Below, piece by piece: positions 10,976-28,812 of a stretch of DNA of 64,000 nt; position 1 is the first letter of the stretch; each line of letters starts with the position of its first letter. The stretch covers positions 32,001 through 96,000 of IMG/VR virus record IMGVR_UViG_3300037475_000240; one strand, written 5' to 3'. The DNA comes from a virus. The position numbers and the translations under genes are program-made. The notes under the pieces are model-generated. The model searched no databases. It had not been told where the DNA came from and was given only the letters and a program-made list of their open reading frames with translations.

Positions 10976-12052
10976 TTAAACAAATTTTAGTAAAAATTTT
11001 CTGTGTTCTGATTCTGCCAATTTTAAGTTAACAGTTTGATATGATGACTTTTTATTGGTAATTAATTGTGTTTTTATGCTAATACCACCAATTTTCTTGG
11101 TAACGTCAAAAAATACTTCAGCTAAAGAATTAGCTAATTGATCTATAGCATTAAAAACATCTTCTTGAGGACCAACGGCATCACATTCTACTTCTACATA
11201 ACCATTACCTAAATGTGTACTTACTTTAGCTGAAAGCTCTTCATCTAATGCTAAAGATAATATTCTAGCAAATTCTAAAGCTTCATTAATATTACTGGCA
11301 TTAATTTTAATCAAAGAAGAGTTATATGGCAAATATTTTTTATGCATTTTATTTAAACTAGAATTATCAGCAACTAAAGCTAAATAACGAGACAAAACAG
11401 TATCAACACTTGGAGAAACTTGTTTTGTTTGTTTGTTATTTAAATATTTGTCAAAAATAGATTCTTGTGAATTTCCTTTTGATGAGTCTATTTGTGCAAT
11501 TGCTTCACGATAGGCTGATTTGCCACGGGCTCTTTTTAAAACAGCCTGAATGTCACCATAAGTAATTTCTCCACTATGGTCAGCATCTAAACCAACATTA
11601 GATTCATAAAATTTCTTTTCTCTTTCAACACTTACACCAGGTAAATGTGGAGAAGTTGGATTTTTAGCTACAATTACAGTTTTAGGATCACCTTGACGCA
11701 CTCCTGGAAGTTTTAATGCAACAGGCAAGAAATTACCAATATAATATTGTTCAGCAGAAGTTAATGGTCCGCCATTAACTCTAATCATATTTTGAATTAA
11801 TTTTTCAACATAATCTAATTGATCTGATGCACTTGTTTGTCTAAACTCTTCATGAGTTCCTTTAAAACCAAGTGATGGTAAAAATTTTGGCATAATTTGG
11901 ACCAATCCAGACGCATTGCCATCTTTATTATGAGCAGACGGATCTAATCCAGACTCTACAGCCATAACATTGAGAATGTCCTCAGGCTTCATACCTACTT
12001 TGGTAGAAAGCTGAAGCAATTTCTGGTAAAAATTGGAGTCCAATTTAGACAT
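10976..12052 (-). CDS. lytic transglycosylase (SLT/lysozyme-like) domain protein, probably virion-associated
   Basis: VMAVESGLDPSAHN...ASGLVQIMP (catalytic ES, GLxQ), DQLDYVEK. Confidence 0.8.
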   Translation of the reverse strand: MSKLDSNFYQKLLQLSTKVGMKPEDILNVMAVESGLDPSAHNKDGNASGLVQIMPKFLPSLGFKGTHEEFRQTSASDQLDYVEKLIQNMIRVNGGPLTSAEQYYIGNFLPVALKLPGVRQGDPKTVIVAKNPTSPHLPGVSVEREKKFYESNVGLDADHSGEITYGDIQAVLKRARGKSAYREAIAQIDSSKGNSQESIFDKYLNNKQTKQVSPSVDTVLSRYLALVADNSSLNKMHKKYLPYNSSLIKINASNINEALEFARILSLALDEELSAKVSTHLGNGYVEVECDAVGPQEDVFNAIDQLANSLAEVFFDVTKKIGGISIKTQLITNKKSSYQTVNLKLAESEHRKFLLKFV

Positions 12053-12055
12053 CTA

Positions 12056-13300
12056 TTACTCCTCGATTGATTTAGCTAATTTGAATAATTGAACTGCAGT
12101 CGAAGTATCAGTGGCTTGAATAGATTTTGCATATGCACGGATACGCATAGCCATTAACGCAGGGCTTTCGTTAGCCATCGCTTCAAGCGAGTCCATAAAC
12201 TTTTTGTGGGCGCTTTTAGGAGGAGGAGGTATTTCTTCTAACTCTTCTTCATGAACTTCATCATGAGTTTCAGGAACTGGAGCAATAGGTGTTTTAGCGA
12301 CCAAATCACTTGGAAGTTTACCTGGAGCAAAGGTTCCAGACCCTGGTTGAATTGCATCTTCATAAACATCTTCTACGGGTGGTGGAGATGGTTGAGTTTT
12401 TGAAATCATAGGAATTGCATCATTTTCTTCATGTACTTCTAAATCTGAAACTTCTGATGTAGGAGGTGTTGAAGAAGATGGTATTACTTCTTGTTTACCT
12501 AAACTGGCTGCATCCTCTACTTTTTTAGTAGGAGCTAATAATTCTTGTTTCTCTAAAAATCCTTTAACATTTGATGTATAATGATCTCTAAACAATTTAT
12601 CATAATTATTATAAACAGAAGTTATTTTTCCTGCAGCTTTAATATAATCATCAACTTTTCTGGTTGCTCGAGCGGCAGCCATTTCTTTTAATGTAGAAAG
12701 TAATGAAGATAAAATACTTTCTGATTTTGTAATCAAATTAGATGTATCTTTCTTTAATTTACCAACTTGTTTTGGATATCTTTTTTCCCAAGCAGCTAAA
12801 GCTTTGCCACGCTCAGAAGAAATATTATGTAAAAAATCCATAATTCCAGCCTGAGAAATTAAAGAAGAACTTCTAGCAACAGCAAATCTACTTTTCATTT
12901 CAGAAAGATGTTTTCTTTGATCTTCATCTAAATCTTTAAATAAGAAATCATGATGTACTTGATCAACATCACCATTAAGATTATCAATAATTTTAACTAT
13001 ATCATAAAGTTTTTTATGAAATCTTCCTAAAAAAGCAACAGAAGTCATATATTCTCTTCTGTTTAAATTTGATTTGGCTCCTTTAATTAAATCCTTAAGA
13101 GAAGTAGAATCACTTCCAGGGTCTTCTCCTTCAATTTCTGTACCAGAAGCTATTGATCTTATTTTAGCATCTGCTGTTCGTAAGCTATTCATAACCCTTT
13201 CAAATTCTGGATTAAAGAATTTTTCGGCAGCAATACCGCTAACATTGCTCATTTCTCTGAGTTTATTAAGAATGCTTCTCTTTTGGGCAGTTTTCTGCAT
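12056..13300 (-). CDS. hypothetical virion-module protein
   Basis: Likely start MQKTAQ at 13300 (GAGG RBS); helical body with Pro/Glu-rich linker. Confidence 0.7.
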   Translation of the reverse strand: MQKTAQKRSILNKLREMSNVSGIAAEKFFNPEFERVMNSLRTADAKIRSIASGTEIEGEDPGSDSTSLKDLIKGAKSNLNRREYMTSVAFLGRFHKKLYDIVKIIDNLNGDVDQVHHDFLFKDLDEDQRKHLSEMKSRFAVARSSSLISQAGIMDFLHNISSERGKALAAWEKRYPKQVGKLKKDTSNLITKSESILSSLLSTLKEMAAARATRKVDDYIKAAGKITSVYNNYDKLFRDHYTSNVKGFLEKQELLAPTKKVEDAASLGKQEVIPSSSTPPTSEVSDLEVHEENDAIPMISKTQPSPPPVEDVYEDAIQPGSGTFAPGKLPSDLVAKTPIAPVPETHDEVHEEELEEIPPPPKSAHKKFMDSLEAMANESPALMAMRIRAYAKSIQATDTSTAVQLFKLAKSIEE

Positions 13301-13379
13301 GATATTCCTCTTAGTACGGACAATTAACAAATAAATACTAAATTATACATACGTAACATTATTACTTATTTGATTTTAA

Positions 13380-15212
13380 TTAGGCTAATGGTGTTCCACC
13401 ACTTGGAGGTGGTGAACTTCCACTGCCAGGTGGACCGGGAGGAGGAGGATTTGATAAATCTAGCCCTGGCAATCCAGAAGGTGGAGCTTCAGGTCCGCCA
13501 TTAGGTGGGGCGCTGGGAGATTCTCCTGGAACAGAAGCATTATTTTTAGCATCGGCTGATGGTTCTGGAATTTCATCCTCATCATCCAAGGCACGTAAAG
13601 TATTCAAGTCCATAGTATCCAAAGAAACTTTTTCTTTTTTAGAGATAGCATTTTGAATTGCTTCTTTTCTAATTTTTCTTTGTTCATCCGCATATTCAAG
13701 ACCCATAGAACGATAAAGCGTATGTACAGACACTCTCTTTTGATCATCTTGCCCTTGAGACAAAGTGACTAAATTATTAATATAGTCTCCTGCATCAAAA
13801 ATAGACATATGATTCCAATCAACTTCAGGAATAATAAGTTGTTTTTCTCCACCACTATAATCATAAAATCCTTGAATTTTAGAAATAGGAGCAAAAATCT
13901 TTCTCTTTAACCAAGAAGATAACATATTACGAAATTGCATATAACGTTGTCTTAAAACATCTAATGCAACACCACCATTAGCATAAGTAGTATCAGCCCC
14001 ACCATCCATCAAAACTGGTGGTACTTGTAATCCAACATAAATTTCTTTAATAATTTGAGTAATATCACCAGAAATATCATAAATACCTGAACCATAACCA
14101 ACTCTAGTTACATCAACGCCTTCATGAGTAAATACTTTAAAATCTTTATCATTTTGAGCTTGTTCAAAAGTTTGTCTCCAAGCTTCTAAGTCAGCTACAG
14201 TTGGTTTAAAATCAGCCGAACCAATTTTAACCAATGTCAAAGGATTAATCATATTATCTGCTTGAGCATATTTAGATTCTCTTAATTTATCAAATAACAT
14301 TAATTGTCTAAAAATACAAACTGGCAAACCAGTTCCTCTAATTTCATATGGACTAATTCTTCTAGCTAAATGAGAAATATTAAAACTATCCAATGGAATA
14401 TCACCGCCACGCTTAATACAATCAATTATATGTTGATTTAATTGCTTGCGCTGTTCAATATCAGAAGGTTTATTAGAATTAACTATTCTTTTTAAATTAG
14501 AATCGGGACGTAACATAATAACAGATTCATGTGCAGATACAGTTGCCTTTACTAACATATGATCTGGATTTTGAATTACTAAACGACTCCACTTTCCTTT
14601 ACTTTCATCTAATTCAGCATAAACAAATGTTTCACCTAATAACCAATATTCTTGAGCTATTTGAACACAAATATTCATTAAATCAATTTCTTCAATCATA
14701 TCATTAAAGAATTTTTCAATATCTTTATTTGGACATTTAATATTTAATTTACTAATTGGATATGTACTATGTAAATTAATAGCATTATGTACAAATGGGT
14801 TTAAAGCATAAAAACTTCTACACCAAGCATTAATAGTTGCTCTATCACGAGGTAAATTTAGATTGCTATTTAACCATAATGGAGAATAAACTTCCGGACC
14901 TTGTTTAACTGTGTCGCCCATACCACCACGAAATCCTCCGCCGCCACCACTTACAACTTGAGCAAATTTATTTACTCCAACAGAAGATGTAACATAAGAA
15001 TTTTGTGTTAATTCATTTTCAGAAGCTTTAGAATTATCAGTACCATCTCTATATAATCCTTGTTCAACTTCTCTTCCTAGAGCTTCTTTTCTGGGTTGAG
15101 AGATATTATGTGCCATAATAGCACTAACTTGTGGAGCTTGTGATCTATTATTTAAATAATTATCAGAATTGGATGGTCCAAACCATTTTTTCCCAGTTTT
15201 ATCAATAGGCAT
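13380..15212 (-). CDS. portal protein
   Basis: 610 aa directly downstream of the terminase; portal-like pattern (FVHNAINLHSTYP, EYWLLGETF, YEIRGTGL, GLQVPPVLM, TYANGGVAL), Pro/Gly tail. Confidence 0.75.
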   Translation of the reverse strand: MPIDKTGKKWFGPSNSDNYLNNRSQAPQVSAIMAHNISQPRKEALGREVEQGLYRDGTDNSKASENELTQNSYVTSSVGVNKFAQVVSGGGGGFRGGMGDTVKQGPEVYSPLWLNSNLNLPRDRATINAWCRSFYALNPFVHNAINLHSTYPISKLNIKCPNKDIEKFFNDMIEEIDLMNICVQIAQEYWLLGETFVYAELDESKGKWSRLVIQNPDHMLVKATVSAHESVIMLRPDSNLKRIVNSNKPSDIEQRKQLNQHIIDCIKRGGDIPLDSFNISHLARRISPYEIRGTGLPVCIFRQLMLFDKLRESKYAQADNMINPLTLVKIGSADFKPTVADLEAWRQTFEQAQNDKDFKVFTHEGVDVTRVGYGSGIYDISGDITQIIKEIYVGLQVPPVLMDGGADTTYANGGVALDVLRQRYMQFRNMLSSWLKRKIFAPISKIQGFYDYSGGEKQLIIPEVDWNHMSIFDAGDYINNLVTLSQGQDDQKRVSVHTLYRSMGLEYADEQRKIRKEAIQNAISKKEKVSLDTMDLNTLRALDDEDEIPEPSADAKNNASVPGESPSAPPNGGPEAPPSGLPGLDLSNPPPPGPPGSGSSPPPSGGTPLA

Positions 15213-15279
15213 ATTTCCTCGTTCTCTATTCTACCTACCTACTATGCTTTTTAAATAATATATCAATGAAAAGACATAG

Positions 15280-17136
15280 TTAGAATTTTCGAGGAATATA
15301 TCCTGCAATCACAAGAGGTTTTTGATTAAATCCTACTTGTTGTAAAATAGGATTATTATTAGTAAATCCACCAGTTAATATAAATTTATATGCAATATAA
15401 GCATTTAATAAAGCCATAAATCCATCGTTTGGTGTCCCACCTTTAATATAATGAATGCTTGGATCTCCAAATTTAGAAATAGATGGCTTAATTTCCATAC
15501 TAGCACAATGAGCCACTAACCAAGCAATTTTTTCATAATCACCAAATGGAAATTTAATATTTCCATTTTTCATTAAACCATAAAGTTCTCCAATATAATG
15601 ATCTCTTTCAAAAATAATTTCTTTTGGATACGCATCTTGATTATATTTAATATGATTATTAATTTTATTATGTGCTCTAGACACCAAATATTTATCACCA
15701 TAAGATGTGTGCATCATTTCAGAAAAATCATTAGAAAAACCAATATCTCCAATAGTTAATTGTAAACTATATTGCCTCATAAGCTGATCAATAATTCCTT
15801 TTTTGCTTTCCATATCATTTCTTTTAAATTTAGTAGCAAATTCTATTGATAATAAATTAGGTCCTTTAGCAGTTAATACTACTGCCGTACTGTAAGATTG
15901 TCCAGCTGCTTTAGCTTTATTTGGATTAGCTAATTGTTCTAAATCATTTCTAGCACCATAGTCGATTCCACAAACAACTATTGGTTCTTCGCCCGGAGCA
16001 ATAGATGCTCTAAATTTTCTACCAACATCGCCACATTTTTCTCTAATTTCTTCAATTGTAATTGGAGAGGTATCGCCTTGAAAAAATTCTCCAAGAACTT
16101 CATTTTTATAAACACGATCAGTATTAATCGGATGAACGCCAGGCTTTTCACCAAGAATATCTTCTTTAGTAAAAGTAGGCATGTATAATTGATTAATATG
16201 AAAACCAATCATCTGACAATCATCGTCATCAGTATCTTTAGTAGCTACCCATTTACCACGTTCAGCTGCTTGACGTTTATCCTGTTCATGACCACAATGG
16301 GTACATTTAACAATAAATCCAGTAATCCAAATTTTTTCCCAATCATCAGATTCTGGAGTATAAAGCGGAAAATGTTTTTCACAACTTTCACATCCTAAAT
16401 GATAATATTGTTGTGAAGACACTTGCCACATTTTATGAAAATCTGATCCCTTACGACGAGGAGTTCCAAAAAATACCTGCACACCTTTACCAGCTTTACC
16501 ATATTTAGCTGTAGTTAAAATCTTAAGGGAATTACCCATAGCTTCACTAGTCGTGTCCTGACATTCGTCGAAGAATATAATATCGGCAGTACGACCTCTA
16601 AGTCTATCACCAGTTAAACCAGTAGACTCTACCCAAATATGATTACCACCAACGAATTGTTTAAAATGTAATGAATCATTAGTTGCACTAGTTTGATCCA
16701 TAAGAGAGTGCATGTAAGATTTTATTTTGATACCAGGTTTTTTTTCTGGGTCATCCATTTGAATAGATGACATAATCATTGGATTAAGTTTTGTCTTAGA
16801 ATAAGCGGCAGCTAACTCTAATTGTGGAAATGCATGAATAATTCTGATTGGAGACTTTTCCCCAACTCCAAAAATTCCAGAACCCATGAAATACATTTCA
16901 AGAGCACTTGCCATAGTAGTTCCACCAACCTGACGACCTTTAACTAAAATAACAGGTTTAGCATTTGGTTCTAAAGCTTTAATTCCAATGTAACGATATA
17001 TGTCGGCGAAGGGCTTATACCCATTATTGTGCAGTCTAAATGGCTTTCCATCTAATGTTAAATAATTTTCTACGAATGCAACTGGATCTAAATTTAATAA
17101 AGACTTTCTTAATTTATGAAAAACTTCCGATGACAT
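15280..17136 (-). CDS. terL: terminase large subunit (lambda GpA-like)
   Basis: Walker A KGRQVGGTT, LRGRTADIIFFDE Walker B, GTP coupling motif, CESC/CTHC Zn finger, GFHINQL, nuclease GIDYG. Confidence 0.85.
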   Translation of the reverse strand: MSSEVFHKLRKSLLNLDPVAFVENYLTLDGKPFRLHNNGYKPFADIYRYIGIKALEPNAKPVILVKGRQVGGTTMASALEMYFMGSGIFGVGEKSPIRIIHAFPQLELAAAYSKTKLNPMIMSSIQMDDPEKKPGIKIKSYMHSLMDQTSATNDSLHFKQFVGGNHIWVESTGLTGDRLRGRTADIIFFDECQDTTSEAMGNSLKILTTAKYGKAGKGVQVFFGTPRRKGSDFHKMWQVSSQQYYHLGCESCEKHFPLYTPESDDWEKIWITGFIVKCTHCGHEQDKRQAAERGKWVATKDTDDDDCQMIGFHINQLYMPTFTKEDILGEKPGVHPINTDRVYKNEVLGEFFQGDTSPITIEEIREKCGDVGRKFRASIAPGEEPIVVCGIDYGARNDLEQLANPNKAKAAGQSYSTAVVLTAKGPNLLSIEFATKFKRNDMESKKGIIDQLMRQYSLQLTIGDIGFSNDFSEMMHTSYGDKYLVSRAHNKINNHIKYNQDAYPKEIIFERDHYIGELYGLMKNGNIKFPFGDYEKIAWLVAHCASMEIKPSISKFGDPSIHYIKGGTPNDGFMALLNAYIAYKFILTGGFTNNNPILQQVGFNQKPLVIAGYIPRKF

Positions 17137-17198
17137 CTAAACTTCCTTACACAATAATGTTTAAATATGTAAGGTTAATTATGTCATTCTAAATAAAA

Positions 17199-17852
17199 TT
17201 AATTGTTAGAAGATGGCATCAAAATATTAAAAGCATCTGTATTAGAAGGATTTAAGTCACTATCACTTACTTGATCCATTGTGCCTAAATTATTATGTTG
17301 TTCATAATTCGTTGGATTTTGTTGTTTAGCTCTTAAATTAAGTTGACTAACTAATCTAACAAAACTATCTTCATCCCAATCTTTATCTTCAGAAACATCA
17401 TTATGATGAATTCTTTTCACTCTTTCAATAATAGCTGGAATTGAATTATTACCTTTAGTATCTCGAATAATATTTTCTAAAGTGTTTTTTATTTGTGGAC
17501 ACTTTTTAATTACCATTGGCACTTTTAAAGATTTTTCTGGTGCTTGCTCTTGTGCAACCTTAGTGTTGACTTTTTCTTCTTCAGAAATCTTATTCATCTT
17601 ACTTAAATAAGCAGTTAATCCACTACGAGCTTTCATATCTTCAACTGCAGCATCTACAGAAGTATATTTTGATTTAGTTCCACCATTCATGATATCATTA
17701 ATTTGATGAAATAATGAATTATCAACACTTCTTGGTTGAACTGCATCTTTAGTTAAAGATTGCTCTAATTTATTTACCCAATTATCTTCATCTTGTTGAG
17801 AGTCAGAATGTTTGGAAATAACTGATTGATGTCTATTATATTTTTTGGACAT
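17199..17852 (-). CDS. hypothetical virion-module protein
   Basis: 217-aa ORF in a tightly packed operon. Confidence 0.65.
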   Translation of the reverse strand: MSKKYNRHQSVISKHSDSQQDEDNWVNKLEQSLTKDAVQPRSVDNSLFHQINDIMNGGTKSKYTSVDAAVEDMKARSGLTAYLSKMNKISEEEKVNTKVAQEQAPEKSLKVPMVIKKCPQIKNTLENIIRDTKGNNSIPAIIERVKRIHHNDVSEDKDWDEDSFVRLVSQLNLRAKQQNPTNYEQHNNLGTMDQVSDSDLNPSNTDAFNILMPSSNN

Positions 17853-17854
17853 AA

Positions 17855-18769
17855 TTAACCTTTGTAATTTGCCATAAAATCAAAATTATCAGAAGATGAA
17901 AGATCATAATCTTCACTTAAATAACCACGATCCTGTCTCATTGGAAAGCCCATATCTTCAAGTAATTGTTGAACTTCGGCTTGTTCACGATCATTTAGCT
18001 TATATTTTTTAACTTGTCTTGAATATAAATCTTCAATATCATGACCAGCAGAAACTGTTCCATTAATACAAATTCTGGCAATTCTAGAAATCAATAATGG
18101 AACAGTTACAAAAACGCCTTGAACACCAGTAATTTTTTGTCCCTCTTTAACTAAAGAAGACTCAGAATCGGATTCTGCGCTTTTCTTTCTCTTGGACTTT
18201 TTCTTACTTTGCTTAACCTTATCTAATCTATCATGAAGTTTTGCAATACCATTTTCAATTTGGGCGCGAACTTCCTCAATTTTATTGGCATCTAATTCGC
18301 CATCAACATCTAATCTCATAGCTTTAGAAATTTCCGAATCCAATTTATCTAAATAAGAAACAGCTCTCTCTAATCCTGCTGTATCATAACCTGAATGTTT
18401 TGGAATGCTATCAATTCTTTCTTTAACCCAAGAAATAAAACCCTCAGATCCTTTTGAAGACCAATCCCATTTTTCTGGCTTCTTAGATTTTGCTTCATTT
18501 TCATCTTCTTTATCTTTTTTATCATCTTCCTCAATAACCTCTAATAAAGGTTCTGGATCAGAAGTGCCTCTTGGAGCACCAGGCAGATCATCAATAACAA
18601 TAGAAATTTCACCAGGTTCATTAACTTCTAATGGGCTCATGTCAAAATGAGATCCTACTTCAGCAGGACCATCTATAATTTCTAATGGAATCATAGACAT
18701 CTCATGATTATTCATGTCTGGTGCTGGTTCAAGTACTATTAATTCTTGGGCGGTGGTTTCAAATGACAT
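17855..18769 (-). CDS. hypothetical virion-module protein
   Basis: 304 aa, GAGG RBS, acidic N-terminus, K-x-A/G motifs. Confidence 0.7.
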   Translation of the reverse strand: MSFETTAQELIVLEPAPDMNNHEMSMIPLEIIDGPAEVGSHFDMSPLEVNEPGEISIVIDDLPGAPRGTSDPEPLLEVIEEDDKKDKEDENEAKSKKPEKWDWSSKGSEGFISWVKERIDSIPKHSGYDTAGLERAVSYLDKLDSEISKAMRLDVDGELDANKIEEVRAQIENGIAKLHDRLDKVKQSKKKSKRKKSAESDSESSLVKEGQKITGVQGVFVTVPLLISRIARICINGTVSAGHDIEDLYSRQVKKYKLNDREQAEVQQLLEDMGFPMRQDRGYLSEDYDLSSSDNFDFMANYKG

Positions 18770-18832
18770 TTATGGTACCTCAAACAAAATCTTATTCTTT
18801 CATATGCATTTATATGTACAAATAATATTTTG

Positions 18833-19420
18833 TTAAAATGATATATTATCGAACAAAGTGTTACCAGAATCGGTTATTCCATAGTCAGCAGACCTATCGC
18901 TAATAGTTTTATCAGCATCTAATTCTGCAGGGTCCATGCCATCTGGAAGTCCTAACAAAGGTGTCTGAGTGGGTCTAATGACCTTCTCTAATTTTTCTTC
19001 TATATTTTTTGGATCAGATTCATCATTTTGATAATCCCTTCCAAAATCCAATTTATCTGGACTTTTATCTTCTTGATCATTAAATGGAAGATATTCATCA
19101 GCAATTCCACCAAATGGTAAAGAAACCTGTATTATACCTGATTCATCAGGAGTAATAGGATTTTTTATTGATTCATCTAAAGGAAAATCAATAGCTTGCT
19201 TTAAAATTGCTTTTAATATTTTTATCCTTAAAGCAGCTTTCTTTTTCCCCTTATTTCTTTTTCTTTTCTTTTTAAGAAAATCAGCTACACTTTTGTATTT
19301 ACTCATATTTTGATAAAGACCGGCACCTGGACCAGTATTATTTTCATATAGATCGTAATTTTTAAATAGAGGCTCATCAAAACGTGCTTTATCTAATTCA
19401 TGATTTTTATTTTTTGGCAA
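18833..19420 (-). CDS. hypothetical protein (basic N-terminus, acidic C-terminus)
   Basis: 195 aa, TTG start with GGAGG RBS, overlaps the nucleotidyltransferase stop. Confidence 0.65.
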   Translation of the reverse strand: MPKNKNHELDKARFDEPLFKNYDLYENNTGPGAGLYQNMSKYKSVADFLKKKRKRNKGKKKAALRIKILKAILKQAIDFPLDESIKNPITPDESGIIQVSLPFGGIADEYLPFNDQEDKSPDKLDFGRDYQNDESDPKNIEEKLEKVIRPTQTPLLGLPDGMDPAELDADKTISDRSADYGITDSGNTLFDNISF

Positions 19421-20180
19421 GAATACCTCCTTTTACATTTTTTATATAATATGGATATACAATTTCTGTAATAGGAATATAATTCCATAAATTCATTTTA
19501 GTTAAATAAAACGAGGCTTTATCAGGATTTTTAGCAAAAGCTTCATTTAATTTTTCTGACATTACTTTATTTGTAGAAATTTTAACAGATTCAGGATGTT
19601 GTTTGACATATTTAACTATACTTTCATCAATATTAAAATCTAATTTACAAGCTAAATAAATGGCTCTAATAACCCTATTCCTATTTGTAGTTAAAGTAAT
19701 TTCTGGATCTAAACAAGTTTTAATTAATTTAGCGTCAATATCCTTAAATCCTTTATGTGTTGGATCAATAACATTTTTTAAATCTAAAGATAATAATAAA
19801 GAATTACAGGTAAAATCTCTACTGAACATTTCTTTTTGCATTTCAGTAGGCTTATTTATACCTATTTTATTTAAATAAGTATTAATATTAGGTACATTAT
19901 AATTTGATGAAAAATCTATTTTTAAATTACCAATAAAAATAGTGCTATGTCCATCTGACATAGTTTTTCTTTCTACATTATATTTTTTCTTTAATTCAGC
20001 ACTAAATTCTTGCGAAAGATATTCTACAGTTTTATCACCAGTAGTTAGATCAATATCAGCAATATTTTCTAAATGTTTTAAATAACGATCACGAGGCGTA
20101 CCGCCACAAATGTAGCAAGGAGATGCTCCAGTTTTTTCTTGCACGCTTTGTAGTTGTGAAAGTAGTTCTTTTAATTTCAT
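19407..20180 (-). CDS. class II (CCA-adding / poly(A) polymerase family) nucleotidyltransferase, short form
   Basis: Motif A CGGTPRD..DIDL, motif B SRDFTCNSL, GFKDI; motif D altered (TNRNRVIRA); only 257 aa. Confidence 0.85.
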   Translation of the reverse strand: MKLKELLSQLQSVQEKTGASPCYICGGTPRDRYLKHLENIADIDLTTGDKTVEYLSQEFSAELKKKYNVERKTMSDGHSTIFIGNLKIDFSSNYNVPNINTYLNKIGINKPTEMQKEMFSRDFTCNSLLLSLDLKNVIDPTHKGFKDIDAKLIKTCLDPEITLTTNRNRVIRAIYLACKLDFNIDESIVKYVKQHPESVKISTNKVMSEKLNEAFAKNPDKASFYLTKMNLWNYIPITEIVYPYYIKNVKGGILAKK

Positions 20181-20190
20181 TCATCATCGC

Positions 20191-21960
20191 TTAGACTGGT
20201 GGTGCTGGAGGAATTTTTGGAGCTGGTGGCTTGATAGGAGCTTCAGGTACAGCTAAATCTTCACTTATCTCTACTTCAGGTGTTTCTTTTTGTGCATTAT
20301 CAAGCTCAGAATTTTGTTGTTGTTTTCTTTGCTCTTTGCGTGCTTTTTCCTTATCTTCATTTTGTTTAAGTGTATTTTTAATGCCTTGAACAGCTGGATT
20401 ATTTTCTTGTTCATTACCTCTTAAATCAATATCTTTAGTTTCCATCGCACCACGTAATTTAGAGATAATATCTTCTACACGAGTAGAAATATAATTATTA
20501 GATTCCAATGCCTTATTAGTTGCCTCAGAAAGTGAAGGGAAAAATGAAGCTAACCCTAAACTATCCAACATCATATCAACAATAGATAATTGTCTTGGAA
20601 CTTCTCTAGTTTTAAAAATTTTAGCTAAATCTTCTAATTTAGCAACAACATCATTAATAGATAAATTAGCAAAGGCTGCATCAATCATATGATCGAAATC
20701 TTTTGCTGTTGCGGCTGGTGTATCTGTTTTACTTACTACATCATCTTCATTTACTTCTAATGGTGCCTCTCTTTTAACAACATCTTTTGGTTCAGCACGT
20801 GGAGGAGGTATTTCTTGAGCTTCAGTAATTAAAATTTCATCATTTACTTCTAAATCATCAACATCACTTACATCAGCAATGTCATTTTTATCTTCTTTAG
20901 TAGTAATTTTTCCTGTGTCCAAATTTTCTAAAAATTTATCAATAGCCTTTGATTTTGGAGGATTATTGGGAGCACTATCTGGGGGATTTTGTGGCATACC
21001 TGGTCCAACTGATGGTAATCCGCCGGGTGCACCAGAAGCATTACCTGGAGGAGCAGGAGGAGTCACAGGAGGTGATTTGTCCGTTGGTTTGGCTGATGGG
21101 GCTCCTTCTTCCTCGGCAACAGAATATAATAACTCAGAAGCTTTTACAAAGCCCTTTTTATTAAGCATATTAGCTTCACGAATAATCATATCTTCATAAA
21201 GTTTAGTTGATGTACTTAACTTATTAACAAGTTGAACTTTTTTCTTTAAATTATAAATAGCTTCCATTAAAGATTCTAATTCTTTGCCTGCAAACATTTG
21301 ACCATCTTGCGATCTTAATAGTTTTTCAGCAGAATCTAATCTTCCAATAATTTTGTGTCTTTGTTTTTCAATTATTTTTTTCTTTTCGGAAGTGGGCATT
21401 TGTTCGGAAGCATCATCACGTGCAAAATCAATATCTTTACCACTAACAGTAGGTTCTGGTTCTTTTGGTTGATCTTTTTTAATATGTAAAAAATAACCGG
21501 GCTCGCCATTTTCATACCATAATTGAGCTGTTTTATATTTCAAGTGAGTGCCCTCTTCATAGAATTTAAGCCAGTTAAGAAAGTCATAAGTCTCCATTAA
21601 GTTCCAACCAGATGTTATATGGCGAATAGCGTGGCGACGATTAATGCCATCTCTTTCTTTACTATATACGTCTTTAACGGCTTGTAACCACTTTTGAGTA
21701 TTATGCTGACCAGGCACATACATATAATAATCATTATTTGGATAAGCATCTTTTTTATTAAAATTTAATTTAGGTATTTCATCTGGATTATATTTTTCAT
21801 AATCCATTCCGGTTTCATTAAAAAAGTTTAATAATTTTTCAATTTTAGCTTCTAAATGAGCTGGAACATCTGCTGAGCTAGGCTCTGATAATACATTATC
21901 AAAATCCTCAACTGGAGATTCCCAAACATTAATATTTTCAGTAGGCGATGTTTTAGTCAT
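20191..21960 (-). CDS. hypothetical virion-module protein
   Basis: 589 aa with Pro-rich linkers, KKDA/YKTA motifs and a helical EANMLNKKGFVKASELL motif. Confidence 0.7.
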   Translation of the reverse strand: MTKTSPTENINVWESPVEDFDNVLSEPSSADVPAHLEAKIEKLLNFFNETGMDYEKYNPDEIPKLNFNKKDAYPNNDYYMYVPGQHNTQKWLQAVKDVYSKERDGINRRHAIRHITSGWNLMETYDFLNWLKFYEEGTHLKYKTAQLWYENGEPGYFLHIKKDQPKEPEPTVSGKDIDFARDDASEQMPTSEKKKIIEKQRHKIIGRLDSAEKLLRSQDGQMFAGKELESLMEAIYNLKKKVQLVNKLSTSTKLYEDMIIREANMLNKKGFVKASELLYSVAEEEGAPSAKPTDKSPPVTPPAPPGNASGAPGGLPSVGPGMPQNPPDSAPNNPPKSKAIDKFLENLDTGKITTKEDKNDIADVSDVDDLEVNDEILITEAQEIPPPRAEPKDVVKREAPLEVNEDDVVSKTDTPAATAKDFDHMIDAAFANLSINDVVAKLEDLAKIFKTREVPRQLSIVDMMLDSLGLASFFPSLSEATNKALESNNYISTRVEDIISKLRGAMETKDIDLRGNEQENNPAVQGIKNTLKQNEDKEKARKEQRKQQQNSELDNAQKETPEVEISEDLAVPEAPIKPPAPKIPPAPPV

Positions 21961-21963
21961 AAT

Positions 21964-22719
21964 TTACTCGTTTAGTTTTTTACTAATGTTTTCATTAAGT
22001 AATTTAGCTTCAGCCAACCTGACTTCAGTTGGAATAATAGCTCTCTCGCTAGGTGGCTTTAATTTAGCCATTTTATCATTAAAAACTTCCATGAAATATA
22101 GAGAAGTTTCAAGATCCATTTGAGATAAAACTTCCTTAATTACATCATGAAATACCGTAATATGCTGATCTACTACTTGTAATGTAACATTATGTTGTAC
22201 GACTTGATCCGCTGGAGATTCAGTAAATTTATAATATTTTTCTAAAATATTACCAAGAACTTCAGTATATTCTATAAGAAGTCTATCTATTCTAGTATTT
22301 ATATTTCTAGGATCTTCTTGAATTTCATCGAAAACTTGTGCTAATCTAGTTTCAATAGCAACACATAAGCTTTTAATTGTTTTTCTAATATCTAATTCTT
22401 GACCAGCCGTTTTAAGCATAATATCTTTATAGGCTTGAGAATTATTTACAGCAAATTCTAATTGATCTTCAGTTGATTTATTAACTGCTAATTTGGTTTT
22501 AGCTATATCTTCTTGAATAATTGAATAAATATCTAAATAGTTATCTTGAAAAGATTTAATACTTTTCTCGGCAATAACAAATTTAGATTCACTTACATTT
22601 GTATATTTAGATGATAACCAATCATGCACATCCTTCGGGGAAAACCCCATAACTAATTTAGAAATAAATTCGTCTTTGTCAGGATGTTCTAAAATACGTT
22701 TCATTGAAGGTTTAGACAT
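21964..22719 (-). CDS. hypothetical protein (candidate small terminase / DNA-binding)
   Basis: Likely start MSKPSMK at 22719; HTH-like N-terminus followed by helical oligomerisation-like segments; function is inference only. Confidence 0.5.
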   Translation of the reverse strand: MSKPSMKRILEHPDKDEFISKLVMGFSPKDVHDWLSSKYTNVSESKFVIAEKSIKSFQDNYLDIYSIIQEDIAKTKLAVNKSTEDQLEFAVNNSQAYKDIMLKTAGQELDIRKTIKSLCVAIETRLAQVFDEIQEDPRNINTRIDRLLIEYTEVLGNILEKYYKFTESPADQVVQHNVTLQVVDQHITVFHDVIKEVLSQMDLETSLYFMEVFNDKMAKLKPPSERAIIPTEVRLAEAKLLNENISKKLNE

Positions 22720-23617
22720 TTTTCCAATCACTTTCCCATATAGAAATAACATTAAATCCATTATTTTTCAATGTTATTTCTCTTTTTATTGTTTTTTCAT
22801 ATAAAAATTCAAAAGTTGTATTTGTACTTAAATTTATGTCTTTACTATTAAATTTTATAGGATTGCCGTGCCAATAATCTCCATAAAACTCATAAACAGT
22901 ATTTGTGTCTGGATTAAATCCATCAACCTTATAAAGTTTTTTATCAATATAAATATTGTATTGCCTATTTTCTTTTGAAATACTTAAACTATCAAGCCAT
23001 AGTATTTCTGATTTTGAGATATAATTTATACAAAATGGGCATCCTTGTCCTTGTAAATGATTACAAGGATTTTGATTAAAATAATTATTACATTTATTAC
23101 ACAATATATTAATTTTAATTTTACTGGAAATATAAATTATATTATCATAATTAAAATTATTTTTATGAACTATAATAGCTTGTTTAATAAACTCTTCCTT
23201 ATTTGAAAACTTAGAATTATAATAACATGTGGGACAACCATTACCATGTAAATGATTACCTGGAGTTTGATTAAAAATTTCGTTACATAAAATACAAATA
23301 ATTGGTATTTTAATGTCTTTATTTATAAAATTTTCTTTTGAAACTAATGAATAATTATATTTAAAATTATGAATAATATTAGCTTCATCAATAAAAACAT
23401 TAATATTTTTACGCTTTTTAGCAGAGTTTATTTTTATAGCACAACTTGGACAACCTTTACCTTGAAGGTGATTGTCTGGTGTTTGATAAAATTCACTATC
23501 ACATTGATTGCAAATTATTAGAACTTTTAATTTGCAATTAATATAATTAACCTTATCATAACAATATTTATCATTATGAATATTAATAGCTTTAGTTATA
23601 AATTTTTCTGGAGACAT
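22712..23617 (-). CDS. putative homing endonuclease: three Zn-ribbon repeats plus PD-(D/E)XK/Vsr-like domain
   Basis: (FI.KA..IH..Y.Y...C..C...F.Q.P.NHL.G.GCP.C)x3; C-terminal SKSE..W..KVDGF..EFYGDYWHG..IWESDW. Confidence 0.8.
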   Translation of the reverse strand: MSPEKFITKAINIHNDKYCYDKVNYINCKLKVLIICNQCDSEFYQTPDNHLQGKGCPSCAIKINSAKKRKNINVFIDEANIIHNFKYNYSLVSKENFINKDIKIPIICILCNEIFNQTPGNHLHGNGCPTCYYNSKFSNKEEFIKQAIIVHKNNFNYDNIIYISSKIKINILCNKCNNYFNQNPCNHLQGQGCPFCINYISKSEILWLDSLSISKENRQYNIYIDKKLYKVDGFNPDTNTVYEFYGDYWHGNPIKFNSKDINLSTNTTFEFLYEKTIKREITLKNNGFNVISIWESDWKNV

Positions 23618-23635
23618 TACTCATAATATATCAAA

Positions 23636-24352
23636 TTATGGTTGGTTTGATTCGAGCCTTCCCTCGCGTGTATCAAAAATAGATTCAGTTGGGTTACTTA
23701 ATCCTTGGGTTTGATTTGCAACATCACCACCAGGAACTTTTGTGCCGTTATTTAACTCAAAACCTGTCTCAAAGTTATAAGTTTTCTTATCTAATTCACA
23801 TTGCCAAAAATGCTCACCAATACGAGAAATTTGAACTCCAGCATGATCTGGACAGTATCTTGTACTTAATGGAGCTTCTAAAATTCTATATTCTTTAGTC
23901 ATATTACTTTTATCAATAGCTTTAATTGATTCAGCAACTTTATTATTATCATCTATTTCTTCTTTAGCACTATGATATTTTTTTTTAAGCTCTTCTAATC
24001 TAAGATCTTCAGCAGCTTTTTTATCTTTTAAAGCATTTGGAGGTGCAGCAATTGTAAGTAATAATTCATCTAATACAGAAGCCTGTTTCATAAGTTCAGG
24101 ATCTCCTGATGAATCTAGGGCTGATGCTAAGTTAGCAATTCCTTCAATTGATTCTTCAGTAATTAAAGATTCTTCTGGAGGCTCAATAGATTCAACTTTA
24201 GTGGCAGCTTTCTTTAAAGCAGCAGCAGCGGAAACACATGATTCTGCAACAACTTTTAAGCATTGTTCATCATACTCAGCTAGTAATAAAGCTTCATTAT
24301 CTGGGCTTTCCAACCAAGATGCTATTGAATTTAATAGTTCTGCAATTCTCAT
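23636..24352 (-). CDS. hypothetical virion-module protein
   Basis: 238 aa, GGAG RBS, IANLASALDSSG..KQASVLDELL helical motif, LSTRYCPDH..WQC. Confidence 0.7.
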   Translation of the reverse strand: MRIAELLNSIASWLESPDNEALLLAEYDEQCLKVVAESCVSAAAALKKAATKVESIEPPEESLITEESIEGIANLASALDSSGDPELMKQASVLDELLLTIAAPPNALKDKKAAEDLRLEELKKKYHSAKEEIDDNNKVAESIKAIDKSNMTKEYRILEAPLSTRYCPDHAGVQISRIGEHFWQCELDKKTYNFETGFELNNGTKVPGGDVANQTQGLSNPTESIFDTREGRLESNQP

Positions 24353-24361
24353 AAGTGCTCC

Positions 24362-25252
24362 TTAAACAGTCTCTTCAAAAAGATGTGCATTAGTTGGTTG
24401 TAAATCTTTGTGTCTTTGTAAAATTTGCTTTATTTCTTCTCTGACAGCCAAACCATCTACTGGACTATGCCCTCTATTTAAGGCATTAATAACGCTAGTT
24501 ATTTCTTCTCTAAGAACAGGATCATGCTCAAATACTGTATTCCAGTCTTCTTTTGAAGACAGACCATAATCATCACCATGTTGTCTTAAAAAGTCTATAA
24601 TATCATTATGAGCTAAAGGCGCACGTTGGGGCGCAAATCTTTCAGGATTTTCTTGATTAATATCAACATCAGGAGAATCATGGGTAAATTTCTCTGGAGA
24701 CATAACTTCCAATTGTTTAAGCTCATCTAACATTGTACTAGATAAACTTAATATTCTAGATAAACCTGTTCTCGCTTTTCCTTGCATATCATTTCTAACT
24801 TTAATATCATGTCTTCTAACAACTGGCATCAACTCAAATATTAAAGCAGAAACATGTGGAAACTGTGTGGCAACTAAATCAGAAGGAGACTTTTTAGAAA
24901 GTTTTCCATCAACACCAAAGGTTAAATCTTTATTACCATCAATTAAATTAACAATATGAAGTAATACTTTTCTAATCTCACCCAAACTAAAAGTATGGGC
25001 ATTGTTTTTTAAATACTCAATTAAATCTAATAAGTTTTTACAAAACTTATATCCTGCAATAGCTTTTTTTTCATGAGGAGTTTTGGCTTTCCCGGCTCCA
25101 GAATCAGCACAAGCTTTAAGAACAGGAAATAATTTATTAGGATAATTCCAAAGTACAGAAATTTGCTTGCGCAAGGAATTTTCTATATTTCCTGCATCTT
25201 CCGCAAATTTATATTTAGCAGTAAGTAAAGTTGCTAGTCTATATATTCTCAT
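24362..25252 (-). CDS. hypothetical protein
   Basis: 296 aa; N-terminal ...AKYKFA|EDA. Confidence 0.65.
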   Translation of the reverse strand: MRIYRLATLLTAKYKFAEDAGNIENSLRKQISVLWNYPNKLFPVLKACADSGAGKAKTPHEKKAIAGYKFCKNLLDLIEYLKNNAHTFSLGEIRKVLLHIVNLIDGNKDLTFGVDGKLSKKSPSDLVATQFPHVSALIFELMPVVRRHDIKVRNDMQGKARTGLSRILSLSSTMLDELKQLEVMSPEKFTHDSPDVDINQENPERFAPQRAPLAHNDIIDFLRQHGDDYGLSSKEDWNTVFEHDPVLREEITSVINALNRGHSPVDGLAVREEIKQILQRHKDLQPTNAHLFEETV

Positions 25253-25254
25253 GA

Positions 25255-26856
25255 TTATCCAAAGATTTTGGAGTTCATGAATGTAGCACCATCGTAGGTC
25301 TCATCCATGCCTCTTCTGTAAAGAGGACGGCAATTACCATCCTTGTCTTGATAGACCTTATGAATTGGTAAGTTTGTATGACCGCATACTGGGTGTTGAC
25401 TGCTGGCACTCTTTAAAATCATGCAGCATGTAGACTGTGCAGAAGATTCTTTTTTTCCAGAAAGACCATCCATGTAAATTTGGAATCCTGTTGCATAAGC
25501 CTTTTCATCACCACAATTAGCTAATACATTTAAAGCATCTTCAGCCTTAGCATGATTGCTTTCGCCCAAAGCAACTCTAATATTATTTACTAAATCACTT
25601 GGTTTAAGAGAAAATTGAGGAGATGCAACGGCAGCGGCTTTATAATCTGATGCATTTTTTGCACGTAATTCATTAATAGAGTCAGCGGTAAATGGTGCTA
25701 CACTTCCATTACACAACATAACTGATGGAATCATTACTTTACTATTAGTAATTTTTACTGGTACAGTGAAAGCAATTTTACCACCATCAACAGCTACACT
25801 GTAAAATACAGTATTTTTATCGTTCTTTGCAACAACAACTTGTGGATTCTTAAATCCAAAGCTAAACAATTCTCTATTTAAATAAGAAATGCCTGCAGTT
25901 ACAGCCGTTCCGAATTCAAAATAAGCTTGACCATGTGGTGAAGCTAATTGTTCTTCGAAAGTAGAAAAATCTTTGTGTTGTGGAACACTTACATCAGAAA
26001 CAGATTCTGCAATTGTAAGTCCAACAATTTGATTTGCAGAAAACTCAGTGTTTCCTTCTCTTTTAGCATTTAATCTAGTTAATGCTAATTCAGTATCAGA
26101 AACTTCTCTGTTCTCAGACGCAGCTTTTGTTAATACATCTAAAATATTAGATCCACTAATTTTAAGCTTATTTCCAGCAAAACTAGTTAAATAAGACTTA
26201 ATAGTTACATGATTTAAATCTTGAGGACCAGCATTTCCCATAAATACTGAAGCTTCTACAATTTTATTTCCATTAACTTCAACAGGAACATAAAAGCTAG
26301 TTACGCCTTTTGGGGTTTCATAGTTGGCTTTAATTACTAAAAATTTATCACTACCACTATCAACTTCAAGTTGAGATGGTTTTAAATTCCAAGCATCTAA
26401 AGTAGATGCTACAGATTTAATTGCTTTATCAGCAAGATTTTGTGAATACATCTTAAGAGGACCATCACTAAATACGCTGGTAAGTGCATTAGCTAATATT
26501 GGATCAGCTACTTCATATGCCTTAACTTCAGCAGTAGAGTCATCTCTTTTATAAGTTGTAACTGAAGATGACTCCTCTTGTAAACCTAATTCATCTTGAA
26601 ATAGTTCAGCGAATTTTGTATTGCGAGACCAAAGTTTAGAATAAAGGGACTTTAAATCAGCTTTACGAATAAAAAGGGTATTATTTGATGCCATTTTGTT
26701 AATGACAGTTGCCATAGCCCCTAAAGTTTGATCATGAGGATATGCATCCACACACTTTGCTAATTTGGCAGAAAGAACTGGAGTTGCTAATTTTTCATTA
26801 TCATCTAAGTTCTTAGATATAAAACCAATTAGTTGATTTATTTTTTCGTGGCTCAT
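25255..26856 (-). CDS. hypothetical virion-module protein with duplicated alpha/beta domain
   Basis: 533 aa; SFYVPVEVNGNKIVEASVFM and AFTVPVKITNSKVMIPSVML repeats; C-terminal Cys/His cluster. Confidence 0.7.
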   Translation of the reverse strand: MSHEKINQLIGFISKNLDDNEKLATPVLSAKLAKCVDAYPHDQTLGAMATVINKMASNNTLFIRKADLKSLYSKLWSRNTKFAELFQDELGLQEESSSVTTYKRDDSTAEVKAYEVADPILANALTSVFSDGPLKMYSQNLADKAIKSVASTLDAWNLKPSQLEVDSGSDKFLVIKANYETPKGVTSFYVPVEVNGNKIVEASVFMGNAGPQDLNHVTIKSYLTSFAGNKLKISGSNILDVLTKAASENREVSDTELALTRLNAKREGNTEFSANQIVGLTIAESVSDVSVPQHKDFSTFEEQLASPHGQAYFEFGTAVTAGISYLNRELFSFGFKNPQVVVAKNDKNTVFYSVAVDGGKIAFTVPVKITNSKVMIPSVMLCNGSVAPFTADSINELRAKNASDYKAAAVASPQFSLKPSDLVNNIRVALGESNHAKAEDALNVLANCGDEKAYATGFQIYMDGLSGKKESSAQSTCCMILKSASSQHPVCGHTNLPIHKVYQDKDGNCRPLYRRGMDETYDGATFMNSKIFG

Positions 26857-26875
26857 TTAGCGTCCTATATTATGG

Positions 26876-27361
26876 TTAGACTAACTCAGGGTACTTAATT
26901 AATACCGCATTTTTAGCTGATGGAGTCAATTGACTTAATAAAGCTTTCACTAATTTCTTATTTTCTGCTAATTTAGCAGGTAAGTAAGTTGGAACCTTAT
27001 GGAGTTCGTTGGCTGGTACACCAAGTTTACTGGCAGCTAATTTTACAATTGGCTCGCCTTTGTAAGAAATTTGAAGATCTCCGGCAGTCTTGGAAAGAAA
27101 TACTTCCCAACCAGCATCAGCTTTTAATTCTTCTGTTTCTTCATTATAAATAGAGACAATGTAATCGCCATCCTCTGCGCTCTGGACTTGCCAAAGATCA
27201 GCCGATTTATCACCATCTTTAAATCTTACGATATCAAATGCTACGGTCTCAAGTTGATCCTTAACATCTGATAATCTATAAGCTTTTTTATAGATTTTCT
27301 GCTCAACACCCGTATAATCTACTGAAAACTTTGTCATTACGACTCCCGTAAAATCGAACAT
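26876..27361 (-). CDS. hypothetical protein
   Basis: 161 aa (alternative start 27337 with GGGAG RBS). Confidence 0.65.
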   Translation of the reverse strand: MFDFTGVVMTKFSVDYTGVEQKIYKKAYRLSDVKDQLETVAFDIVRFKDGDKSADLWQVQSAEDGDYIVSIYNEETEELKADAGWEVFLSKTAGDLQISYKGEPIVKLAASKLGVPANELHKVPTYLPAKLAENKKLVKALLSQLTPSAKNAVLIKYPELV

Positions 27362-27439
27362 ATCCCTATCGTAGATAAGAAAATATTGATAATATTCTGA
27401 CTTTATTAATAATTAAAGCCACTTATATTTTCCAAAATA

Positions 27440-27657
27440 TTACCAAAAGACTAAAAGTTTTAATTTTTTAGGAAAATCTGCCTCTGAAACTTGCTCTCCA
27501 TACAAATAATATTTTGCTTTCTTAAAATACTTATGAATATAAGCTGGACCAGTTTCTCTGTGAAGTTTACCTTCCAAATACCAAATCTCTTCTCCATCTA
27601 TATTTTTTAACACTTTGTAAGTTTTATTACCCTAATTGTAGAAATTCTTTTTACCAT
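27440..27657 (-). CDS. small LHRExGPA-repeat-family protein (GTG start at 27613, or ATG 27657 with a one-base frameshift)
   Basis: Not in ORF track: VLKNIDGEEIWYLEGKLHRETGPAYIH...YYLYGEQVSE..KLKLLVFW*. Confidence 0.6.
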
Positions 27658-28091: not shown

Positions 28092-28101
28092 AATAGTCCT
28101 T

Positions 28102-28800: not shown

Positions 28801-28812
28801 AGCAAGTATATA

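Follow-up and report, generated by a model that had tools for sequence, protein, structure and literature searches.

Class II nucleotidyltransferases are the standard example of enzymes in which amino-acid side chains act as the template that selects the nucleotide. Members with solved structures include the CCA-adding enzymes of Planococcus (PDB 6qy6 and 6ibp), Thermotoga (3h37-3h3a) and Geobacillus (1miv), the Aquifex-type CC- and A-adding enzymes (3wfo-3wfs; 4wby and 1vfg), and E. coli PAP I (3aqk, 3aql and 3aqm). Here, we describe P0001, a short nucleotidyltransferase (NTase) of 257 amino acids (aa) encoded at positions 19407 to 20180, minus strand, of a 64,000-nucleotide stretch of viral DNA. 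This stretch, hereafter the window, is bases 32001-96000 of the 126,875-bp contig IMGVR_UViG_3300037475_000240. As predicted from its sequence, P0001 would be a catalytically competent, minimal class II ribonucleotidyltransferase composed of head and neck only, and would not be CCA-adding. We give about an even chance to the full reading, that P0001 actively tails RNA 3' ends with something other than CCA and is tied to head assembly.

In the human CCA-adding enzyme, the three template positions have been randomised with Asn on offer, and D165 and R168 are reported never to have been replaced under selection for A or CCA repair (PMC11784652). The same source describes CC-adding enzymes as varying at the first template position. 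In the Aquifex CC-adding enzyme, the Asp and the Arg are described as hydrogen-bonding N4 and N3/O2 of CTP (PMC3925840). For E. coli PAP I, the D212A variant is reported to keep >90% of AMP incorporation, the R215A variant is random for A, C and U, and G addition needs the motif to be rebuilt (PMC2532741). In an engineered specificity shift cited in PMC2532741 and PMC3925840, both template partners had to change. Outside the template, the RRD of motif B is described as involved in ribose recognition (PMC2910056). CC-adding enzymes are characterised as typically having no B/A element and no flexible loop, with QRD for RRD and xDxxR for EDxxR, and the lack of a B/A element, an xRD and a non-acidic first template residue are given as hallmarks of enzymes without the C-to-A switch (PMC7947759).

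P0001 has the class II fold. It matches the Pfam head domain PF01743 (PolyA_pol) at E 7.4e-13, with 49.4 bits against a cut-off of 23 over profile positions 1-125 of 126, and it matches PHROG 2244 (E 8e-14) and 24229 (E 3e-12), both of which are labelled 'tRNA nucleotidyltransferase'. An AlphaFold (AF2) model made from a 31-sequence alignment has a pLDDT of 86.3 and a pTM of 0.80. When this model was compared with the PDB in Foldseek, 53 chains matched at E <= 0.001, and 28 of the 31 listed are class II enzymes, the three weakest being FAM46/TENT5. The best matches are class II A-, CCA- and CC-adding enzymes and PAP I, at a TMq of 0.62-0.68 and 15-22% identity. The head and neck of the three CCA enzymes named above match at E 1e-10 to 1e-7 (TMq ~0.65-0.68), the Aquifex-type 4wby is the best structural match of all (E 1.7e-10), and PAP I follows at E 1e-6 to 2e-5.

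The catalytic motifs GGxxRD, DxD and RDFTxN, which the original prediction had called intact, can be read directly in the open reading frame (ORF). Motif A consists of GGTPRD at residues 26-31 (20088-20105, minus strand, like all features of this gene) and the catalytic DxD, D42-I-D44 (20049-20057). Motif B reads SRDFTCN at residues 120-126 (19803-19823); it aligns with RRDLTIN in the canonical paralogue encoded by the same genome, and Ser replaces the first Arg of RRD. GGxxRD, DxD, the RD of motif B, motif C and the R..RA of motif D are common to P0001 and the class II CCA enzymes. Read by hand, motif D is TNRNRVIRA at residues 165-173 (19662-19688), in place of E-D-x-x-R-x-x-R-A. The TNRNR at 19674-19688 had been placed at exactly these coordinates beforehand, and it stands opposite E-D-x-x-R in three independent alignments: one made by HMMER with solved CCA enzymes, one by BLASTP with the canonical paralogue of this genome, and one by MAFFT from 8 family members and 3 canonical paralogues. 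P0001 keeps the predicted metal-binding and triphosphate residues plus the template Arg, R169.

The other half of a CCA enzyme is missing. Measured against canonical enzymes of roughly 410 aa, P0001 stops near residue 260, at the point where a body domain would start. HMMER places it on about residues 35-233 of chain 3h37 (441 aa) and 142-266 of chain 6ibp (420 aa), and in Foldseek the overlap is ~240 columns against targets of 340-520 aa. Both the alignment ends and the structural coverage bear out the earlier statement that most of the body and tail is absent. PF12627 has no match in the short gene, nor elsewhere in two related genomes, G002 and G003. A separate gene for the body and tail was considered and rejected, as there is no such Pfam match and no stand-alone PF12627 in G002 and G003. 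P0001 has no B/A element, DFSSN standing for TTFRxE in what is an approximate alignment of that stretch, and the loop region is ~6 residues shorter than in the genome's canonical paralogue. P0001 is therefore unlike the class II CCA enzymes in being ~150 residues shorter, in having no body/tail or B/A element, and in carrying SRD for RRD and T/S-N for E-D. Its scores against the CCA equivalogs NF009814 (56.9 bits vs 290) and TIGR02692 (41.9 vs 438.8) and the pcnB models TIGR01942 (38.8 vs 305.65) and NF008634 (23 vs 702) are all below the cut-offs. By these sequence comparisons, P0001 fails every CCA-adding-enzyme test applied. With a canonical paralogue also present, the proposal that this is not an ordinary CCA enzyme is well supported.

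P0001 has three hallmarks in common with the CC-adding enzymes. The lack of a B/A element, the xRD of motif B and the non-acidic first template position are all common to the two (PMC7947759), and P0001 could be a CC-adding-type partial tRNA enzyme that restores C74-C75 on damaged tRNAs, with A76 left to the host or a canonical phage enzyme. The lineage also invests in RNA repair: RNA ligase family matches are found elsewhere in the genome in 4 of its 4 genomes, RtcB is found in 2 of 4 (G002 and G003 only), and one member of the short family is fused to HAD_SAK RNA-repair domains. However, true CC-adders keep the Asp, as xDxxR, and hold the tRNA with a body and tail (PMC3925840). The Aquifex-type A-adding enzymes likewise have both the Asp and these domains. 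P0001 has N166 at the Asp position, the short family has N, K, S or Q there, and neither has the body and tail. Moreover, G002 and G003 have no phage A-adding partner and no stand-alone PF12627. On balance, we consider a CC-adding role unlikely.

The altered template is conserved. Of the 1367 candidates from a word-indexed search, 693 (141-450 aa long) reached E <= 0.001, and the best 120 of these, at 65-84% identity to P0001 and 244-260 aa in length, are the basis of all counts out of 120. G26, G27, R30, D31, D42 and D44 are each present in 120/120, as is every residue of SRDFTCN, including R121 and D122, except F123 (119/120). In motif D, N166 is kept in 118/120 and N168, R169 and R172 in 120/120 each, and position 165 is S in 55, T in 52 and A in 6. 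The dN/dS (NG86) of the gene is 0.13 against the nearest relative, L003, and 0.27-0.32 against two others. The D-to-N change, whose conservation the original prediction asked to be checked, is thus a conserved feature. Within the close family, this rules out the refuting case in which homologues are canonical and P0001 alone has degenerated. Judging from these substitutions, the short NTase is no decayed copy; it is conserved and under selection. The same counts bear on the idea that the fold has lost catalysis and serves only in structure or assembly, which the location in the head block and the fusion to disordered tails described below would suit. GG, RD, DxD and the RD of motif B are invariant in all 120 and nearly so in the best 150 distant representatives described next. 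Such a pattern is unexpected for a dead enzyme, and we regard this explanation as very improbable.

The wider family was collected by an exhaustive profile search of 1.84 billion representatives, with 7638 matches at E <= 0.001, 535 at E <= 1e-10 and 119 at E <= 1e-30. The weak end of the 7638 surely takes in canonical enzymes. The best 150 representatives are mostly 240-260 aa, with DGH, DFSSN and SRDFT[CI]N in common. Ser stands for the first Arg of RRD in 134 of 137 of them. Motif D is covered by 132 of the representatives, with D at the Asp position in 67, N in 37, S in 10, Q in 6 and another residue in 12; across the wider family D, N, S, Q, K, M and Y are all found there, and the template Arg is present in 127 of the 132. 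A quick tree of 108 rows with at least 200 filled columns, P0001 included and the motif D columns excluded, places P0001 in a 33-row clade (SH-aLRT 96) in which the Asp position is N in 24, D in 2 and other residues in 7. A second clade of 29 rows (SH-aLRT 100) has D in 27 and N in 2 and typically reads DDP[RK]R. An orthologue that keeps the synteny and is 45% identical reads T-K-S-N-R; its 383-kb contig was binned with a Chitinophagales metagenome-assembled genome. In the aligned family, the Asp position drifts, and N168-R169 and R172 stay fixed.

The drift of the Asp alongside a constant Arg points to loss of the Asp half of the template, with a relaxed or lost role, and not to a new base specificity or polarity. 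This pattern fits PAP I, where specificity is reported to sit in the template Arg and not in the Asp (PMC2532741). PAP I is unlike P0001 in keeping EDxxR and a C-terminal RNA-binding region; P0001 has no C-terminal region. Because the retained Arg would still donate hydrogen bonds, C or A is the most likely nucleotide, and recognition of U or G would be unlikely. A switch toward U/G addition, the engineered outcome mentioned in the original prediction, is unsupported, as the template Arg is kept and the Asp position varies across the wider family. The Arg half of the template is kept and the Asp half drifts across hundreds of sequence clusters of a truncated enzyme that, from its domain content, could not measure tRNA. 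Knowing which nucleotide is added, and to which acceptor, would test how far the Arg by itself accounts for specificity.

The family looks essentially viral, since a search of 185,579 prokaryote species, each represented by one genome, gave only 3 loci. Several kinds of C-terminal addition are seen in the wider family: HAD_SAK RNA-repair domains (P0332), Peptidase_M15 with a phage tail lysozyme (P0300), PcfJ and LRV. The best phage-collection matches were below 35% identity for the NTase (tblastn) and about 25% for the large terminase subunit (TerL), and no close record was found there. With its best match under 30% identical, this collection also yielded no cultured relative. Two phage-collection matches, H6 and H2, were rejected as short-family members, since the enzyme of Aeromonas phage ZPAH1 is 353 aa and that of a 735-kb uncultured phage has a canonical DDPLR. 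The latter phage (LR756501.1, L034:3670-7371) encodes a multidomain protein of 1233 aa whose modules are separated by repeated D-P-Y-G-E-E-[DR]-W-E peptides and whose C-terminus is the canonical CCA-type enzyme, which has an HD domain. Literature searches on phage PF01743 proteins, tRNA nucleotidyltransferases and CCA-adding enzymes returned no description of the short family; the supplement of PMC7162821, which they did not cover, might list such genes. Judged by its conserved residues, P0001 is probably active, and the truncated class II enzymes to which it belongs form a large family that is so far unstudied.

A second PF01743 protein lies outside the window at G000:C1:23998-25227 (plus strand; L001:1426-2655). 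This canonical paralogue is 409 aa long, contains FRTE, RRD and EDGLRLLRVARF, with EDGLR as its template, and passes NF009814 with 324.6 bits against 290. Its neighbours are a Gly/Ser/Thr-rich repeat protein and an ORF without annotation. BLASTP aligns it with the short NTase at 19% identity over 104 residues, which indicates that the two are not recent duplicates. Both genes are present in G000, in the complete G001 and in the fragment G004. G002 (97% complete) and G003 (100%) have only the short gene, and in place of the canonical enzyme they carry RtcB. The short gene is therefore the core copy and the canonical enzyme an accessory. There are no tRNAs in the window, and the three on the contig are at least 56 kb away, in agreement with the earlier remark that none lie nearby. 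One of these, at G000:C1:108596-108671 (minus strand), has the anticodon CUA (Pyl in ARAGORN; amber suppressor type) and no encoded CCA. The other two are tRNA-Thr genes at 113829-114068, and their CCA is encoded.

These observations bear on whether P0001 simply does, in a smaller format, the usual work of adding or repairing the CCA end of host or phage tRNAs. In favour of this, both automatic annotation in public databases and the PHROG labels name it a tRNA nucleotidyltransferase, its catalytic core is intact, it is the only PF01743 protein of two complete relatives, and one phage tRNA gene lacks an encoded CCA. Yet none of its CCA equivalog scores comes anywhere near the cut-off, it has neither the B/A element nor the half that binds tRNA, and a true CCA enzyme sits alongside it in G000, G001 and G004. 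The template Asp, moreover, is not kept, and in the human enzyme no replacement of that residue is reported to have survived selection even with Asn offered (PMC11784652). A miniature CCA enzyme is, in our estimate, quite improbable.

The short NTase has a constant partner. The gene for g195, a largely unfolded 195-aa protein, lies at 18833-19420 on the minus strand. It starts with a TTG, is read in the +1 frame and shares 14 nucleotides with the end of the NTase gene, stop included. A Shine-Dalgarno-like AAAGGAGGT at 19425-19433 (minus strand) lies within the last NTase codons (K-G-G), 4 nucleotides before the TTG at 19420. By this arrangement, the NTase and g195 are translationally coupled in the window. 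Elsewhere they are one protein. A search for longer homologues gave 106 proteins of 451-972 aa at E <= 1e-10 among 3400 candidates, and in 101 of these the C-terminal part is a g195 homologue. Among 22 loci with the window counted, the two are fused in frame in 10, of which L016/L017 and L015/L021 look like duplicate pairs. Another 10 have separate genes, g195 being read in the +1 frame from a start codon 5-14 nucleotides ahead of the NTase stop. In L006 there is extra sequence between the two, and L014 ends too early for judging. The split was not taken as a frameshift error, because 10 of the 10 overlapping split loci have their own start and an SD-like K-G-G stretch.

The AF2 model of g195 has no confident fold (pLDDT 53, pTM 0.19). 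The protein does contain conserved blocks, R-F-x-E-P-[LF]-[FY]-x-N-Y-D-L-Y, then G-P-G-A-G and K-Y-K-S-V-x-[DE]-F-L, followed by a Lys/Arg patch, and a conserved block is found again in the tails of more distant fused members. A complex prediction of the NTase with g195 scored 0.00 in a run without controls and carries no weight either way. When the window g195 was used as a tblastn query against its own contig, only K-rich low-complexity matches were returned.

A profile of 66 g195-type tails, built from the relatives, links g195 to the head. The link emerged only with this profile and not with the window g195 as query. The profile matches one other ORF among the 806 of the contig, a 1155-aa protein (4685-8152, minus strand; E 7.4e-13) with a head-maturation-protease domain at about residues 105-215 (phrog_18299, E 1.3e-14). 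The matching domains are residues 406-456 and 493-525. They hold two copies, at ~6788-6940 and 6581-6679 (minus strand), of a peptide of roughly 22 residues, K-x-[AG]-Y-F-Q-G-(G-G-G-V-N)-E-P-x-P-G-x-x-[KQ]-Y. The orthologues of the 1155-aa protein in G001 (E 7.5e-10) and G003 (E 5e-5) match at the same two places, and the stretch of G002 examined with the tail profile gave no match. Most g195 proteins of the relatives, and most fusion junctions, start with this YFQG peptide, which may be a processing or targeting tag.

The internal proteins of phage T4 carry a capsid-targeting sequence. The resemblance is that, in the relatives, the peptide that starts the enzyme's tail recurs in the protease-domain head protein, much as a shared targeting or processing tag would. 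There is no sequence similarity to the T4 proteins, however, and the tag is absent from the window g195.

The surrounding gene order ties the NTase to the virion module. Genes of the contig, which has a GC content of ~30%, are nearly all on one strand. In the direction of transcription, the order starts with replication genes (DNA polymerase, UvsX, SSB, RuvC and primase), followed by a sigma-like protein, several unknowns and an HNH endonuclease. Next are g265, g589, the NTase, g195, g304 and g217, and then TerL and the portal. TerL (15280-17136, minus strand) matches PF05876 (E 6e-17) and phrog_675 (E 2.3e-55), and the portal protein (13380-15212, minus strand) matches phrog_16240 (E 2.1e-49). 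Beyond the portal are an SLT-domain protein, a phosphatase of the DSP-PTPase/PTP-SAK type and the 1155-aa protein. The order g589-NTase-g195-g304-g217-TerL-portal is fixed across relatives in 21 viral-contig loci, so the synteny that the original prediction asked to be checked holds. In these loci, g589 is directly upstream of the NTase in 20 of 21, the remaining one (L023) beginning inside the NTase; g195 follows the NTase in every locus except L014, whose contig ends first; and TerL is downstream in 19 of 21, the other two ending before TerL. The relatives' genomes are 433-448 kb and are rated 97-100% complete; the window's own contig has a CheckV completeness of 29%.

The four immediate neighbours of the NTase (589, 195, 304 and 217 aa) have no Pfam or PHROG family. 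The upstream neighbour g589 (20191-21960, minus strand) has a Pro/acidic low-complexity middle and an Atlas model of pLDDT 0.46. Downstream, g304 and g217 (17199-18769, minus strand) have no significant family and are syntenic in relatives, with an Atlas pLDDT of 0.60 for g217. The flanking g589, g217 and g195 are thus modelled with low confidence, and an ESM Atlas comparison of g217 and g589 gave no usable match. The original statement that the gene lies between virion-module genes therefore stands on the synteny with TerL and the portal, three genes downstream, and not on the identity of the four flanking genes.

The place of the gene among DNA-packaging genes, together with the lack of an RNA-binding body and tail, raises the question of a non-RNA acceptor. 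P0001 might nucleotidylylate a head or host protein or extend DNA 3' ends, possibly with deoxynucleoside triphosphates. No PF01743 protein with a protein or DNA acceptor was found in the searches made, and we know of none. The Ser that replaces the first Arg of the ribose-recognition motif RRD (PMC2910056) in 134/137 representatives would suit such a change of substrate. As described, however, CC-adding enzymes with QRD also use nucleoside triphosphates (PMC7947759), and we give a non-RNA acceptor only a low probability.

Under the preferred reading, that of a non-CCA RNA-tailing enzyme tied to head assembly, P0001 would be the core copy of the fold in a lineage of roughly 430-450-kb phages, with a fixed place in a block that runs into the terminase, the portal and the protease-domain head protein. 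It has lost what ordered C-C-A synthesis needs, namely the body and tail, the B/A element, the first Arg of RRD, and the Glu and Asp of EDxxR. The enzyme would then add one kind of nucleotide to RNA 3'-OH ends, without a specificity switch or tRNA measuring. It would work with the disordered, basic-patch g195, to which it is coupled in the window and with which it forms one polypeptide in about half of the relatives. Since g195 has a peptide in common with the protease-domain head protein in most relatives, g195 probably ties the enzyme to head assembly, and through g195 the enzyme may enter the virion. If the link to head assembly is true, huge phages carry RNA-end-modifying enzymes in the particle, which would offer a new angle on the phage-defence contest over tRNA and RNA ends.

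Several points weigh against this reading. In place of the Asp, an Asn is still able to act as hydrogen-bond acceptor for the amino group of either C or A, and ordinary C/A recognition is thus possible. The direction of the D-to-N change rests mainly on canonical enzymes having Asp, since the single outgroup of the tree fills only 38% of the columns. The suppressor tRNA(CUA) gene has no encoded CCA, which implies that some CCA addition is needed in infected cells. Two complete relatives without the canonical CCA enzyme keep the short gene, and this would also fit a self-sufficient role in tRNA-end repair. The function of the immediate neighbours is unrecognisable from their sequences. Lastly, the window g195 and that of L003 begin just after the YFQG peptide and so lack it, and the DNA pattern coding for YFQG is rare, at 2-4 places per genome in any frame. 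In the contig ORFs, YFQG is found only in the two copies of the 1155-aa protein, and neither P0001 nor the window g195 has the peptide. The head-targeting argument accordingly holds for the relatives and is only implied for this genome.

A bolder form of the same reading concerns delivery. The enzyme would be loaded into the capsid via g195 and injected with the DNA, and at the onset of infection it would tail the 3' ends of host or phage RNA with something other than CCA. Such a tail might disarm or pre-empt RNA-targeting defences or mark host RNAs, and the enzyme might travel with the phosphatase and transglycosylase of the block. The late or virion-delivered role in the original prediction finds indirect support in the synteny, the fusions and the peptide common with the protease-domain protein in relatives; the window copy has neither fusion nor peptide. 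We hold this full scenario of injection and early tailing to be rather unlikely. If true, a virion-delivered RNA-tailing enzyme would be a class undescribed for phages in the literature searched.

Further searches around the NTase were negative. PADLOC on the NTase and five neighbours gave nothing meaningful, Rfam over the whole window gave no match at gathering scores, and an all-against-all BLASTP of the contig ORFs gave no paralogue of the NTase block proteins. A promoter scan of 12000-29000 found 86 promoter-like sites against 88.6 in shuffles. Sequencing runs listed for this DNA comprise one DNA run that may be its source and one run with a small share, and no RNA run is among them, which carries no weight on expression.

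Several other genes of the block and its surroundings were noted. The phosphatase (251 aa, DSP-PTPase type; 9083-9838, minus strand) matches Y_phosphatase2 at E 8e-10 and PTP-SAK with 27.7 bits against 27. It is located between the portal and the protease-domain protein, and each of the 3 complete relatives examined has it in the same position, about 11 kb away from the NTase, for which it might make RNA ends ready. The SLT-domain protein of the head block (358 aa; 10976-12052, minus strand) has an N-terminal SLT transglycosylase domain, and its PHROG matches are lytic tail and baseplate-hub proteins. In L030 (8779-11667), L015, L020, L021 and L022, the TerL match is in two pieces or is 1.5-3 kb farther from g217, which suggests an intron, intein or endonuclease insertion in or before TerL. 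A GIY-YIG homing endonuclease is encoded at 28102-28800 (minus strand). The HNH-type endonuclease, with a DUF4379 zinc finger, is encoded at 22712-23617 (minus strand). Of the 21 related loci, only 2 (L008 and L022) have the HNH gene here, so it is a mobile insertion.

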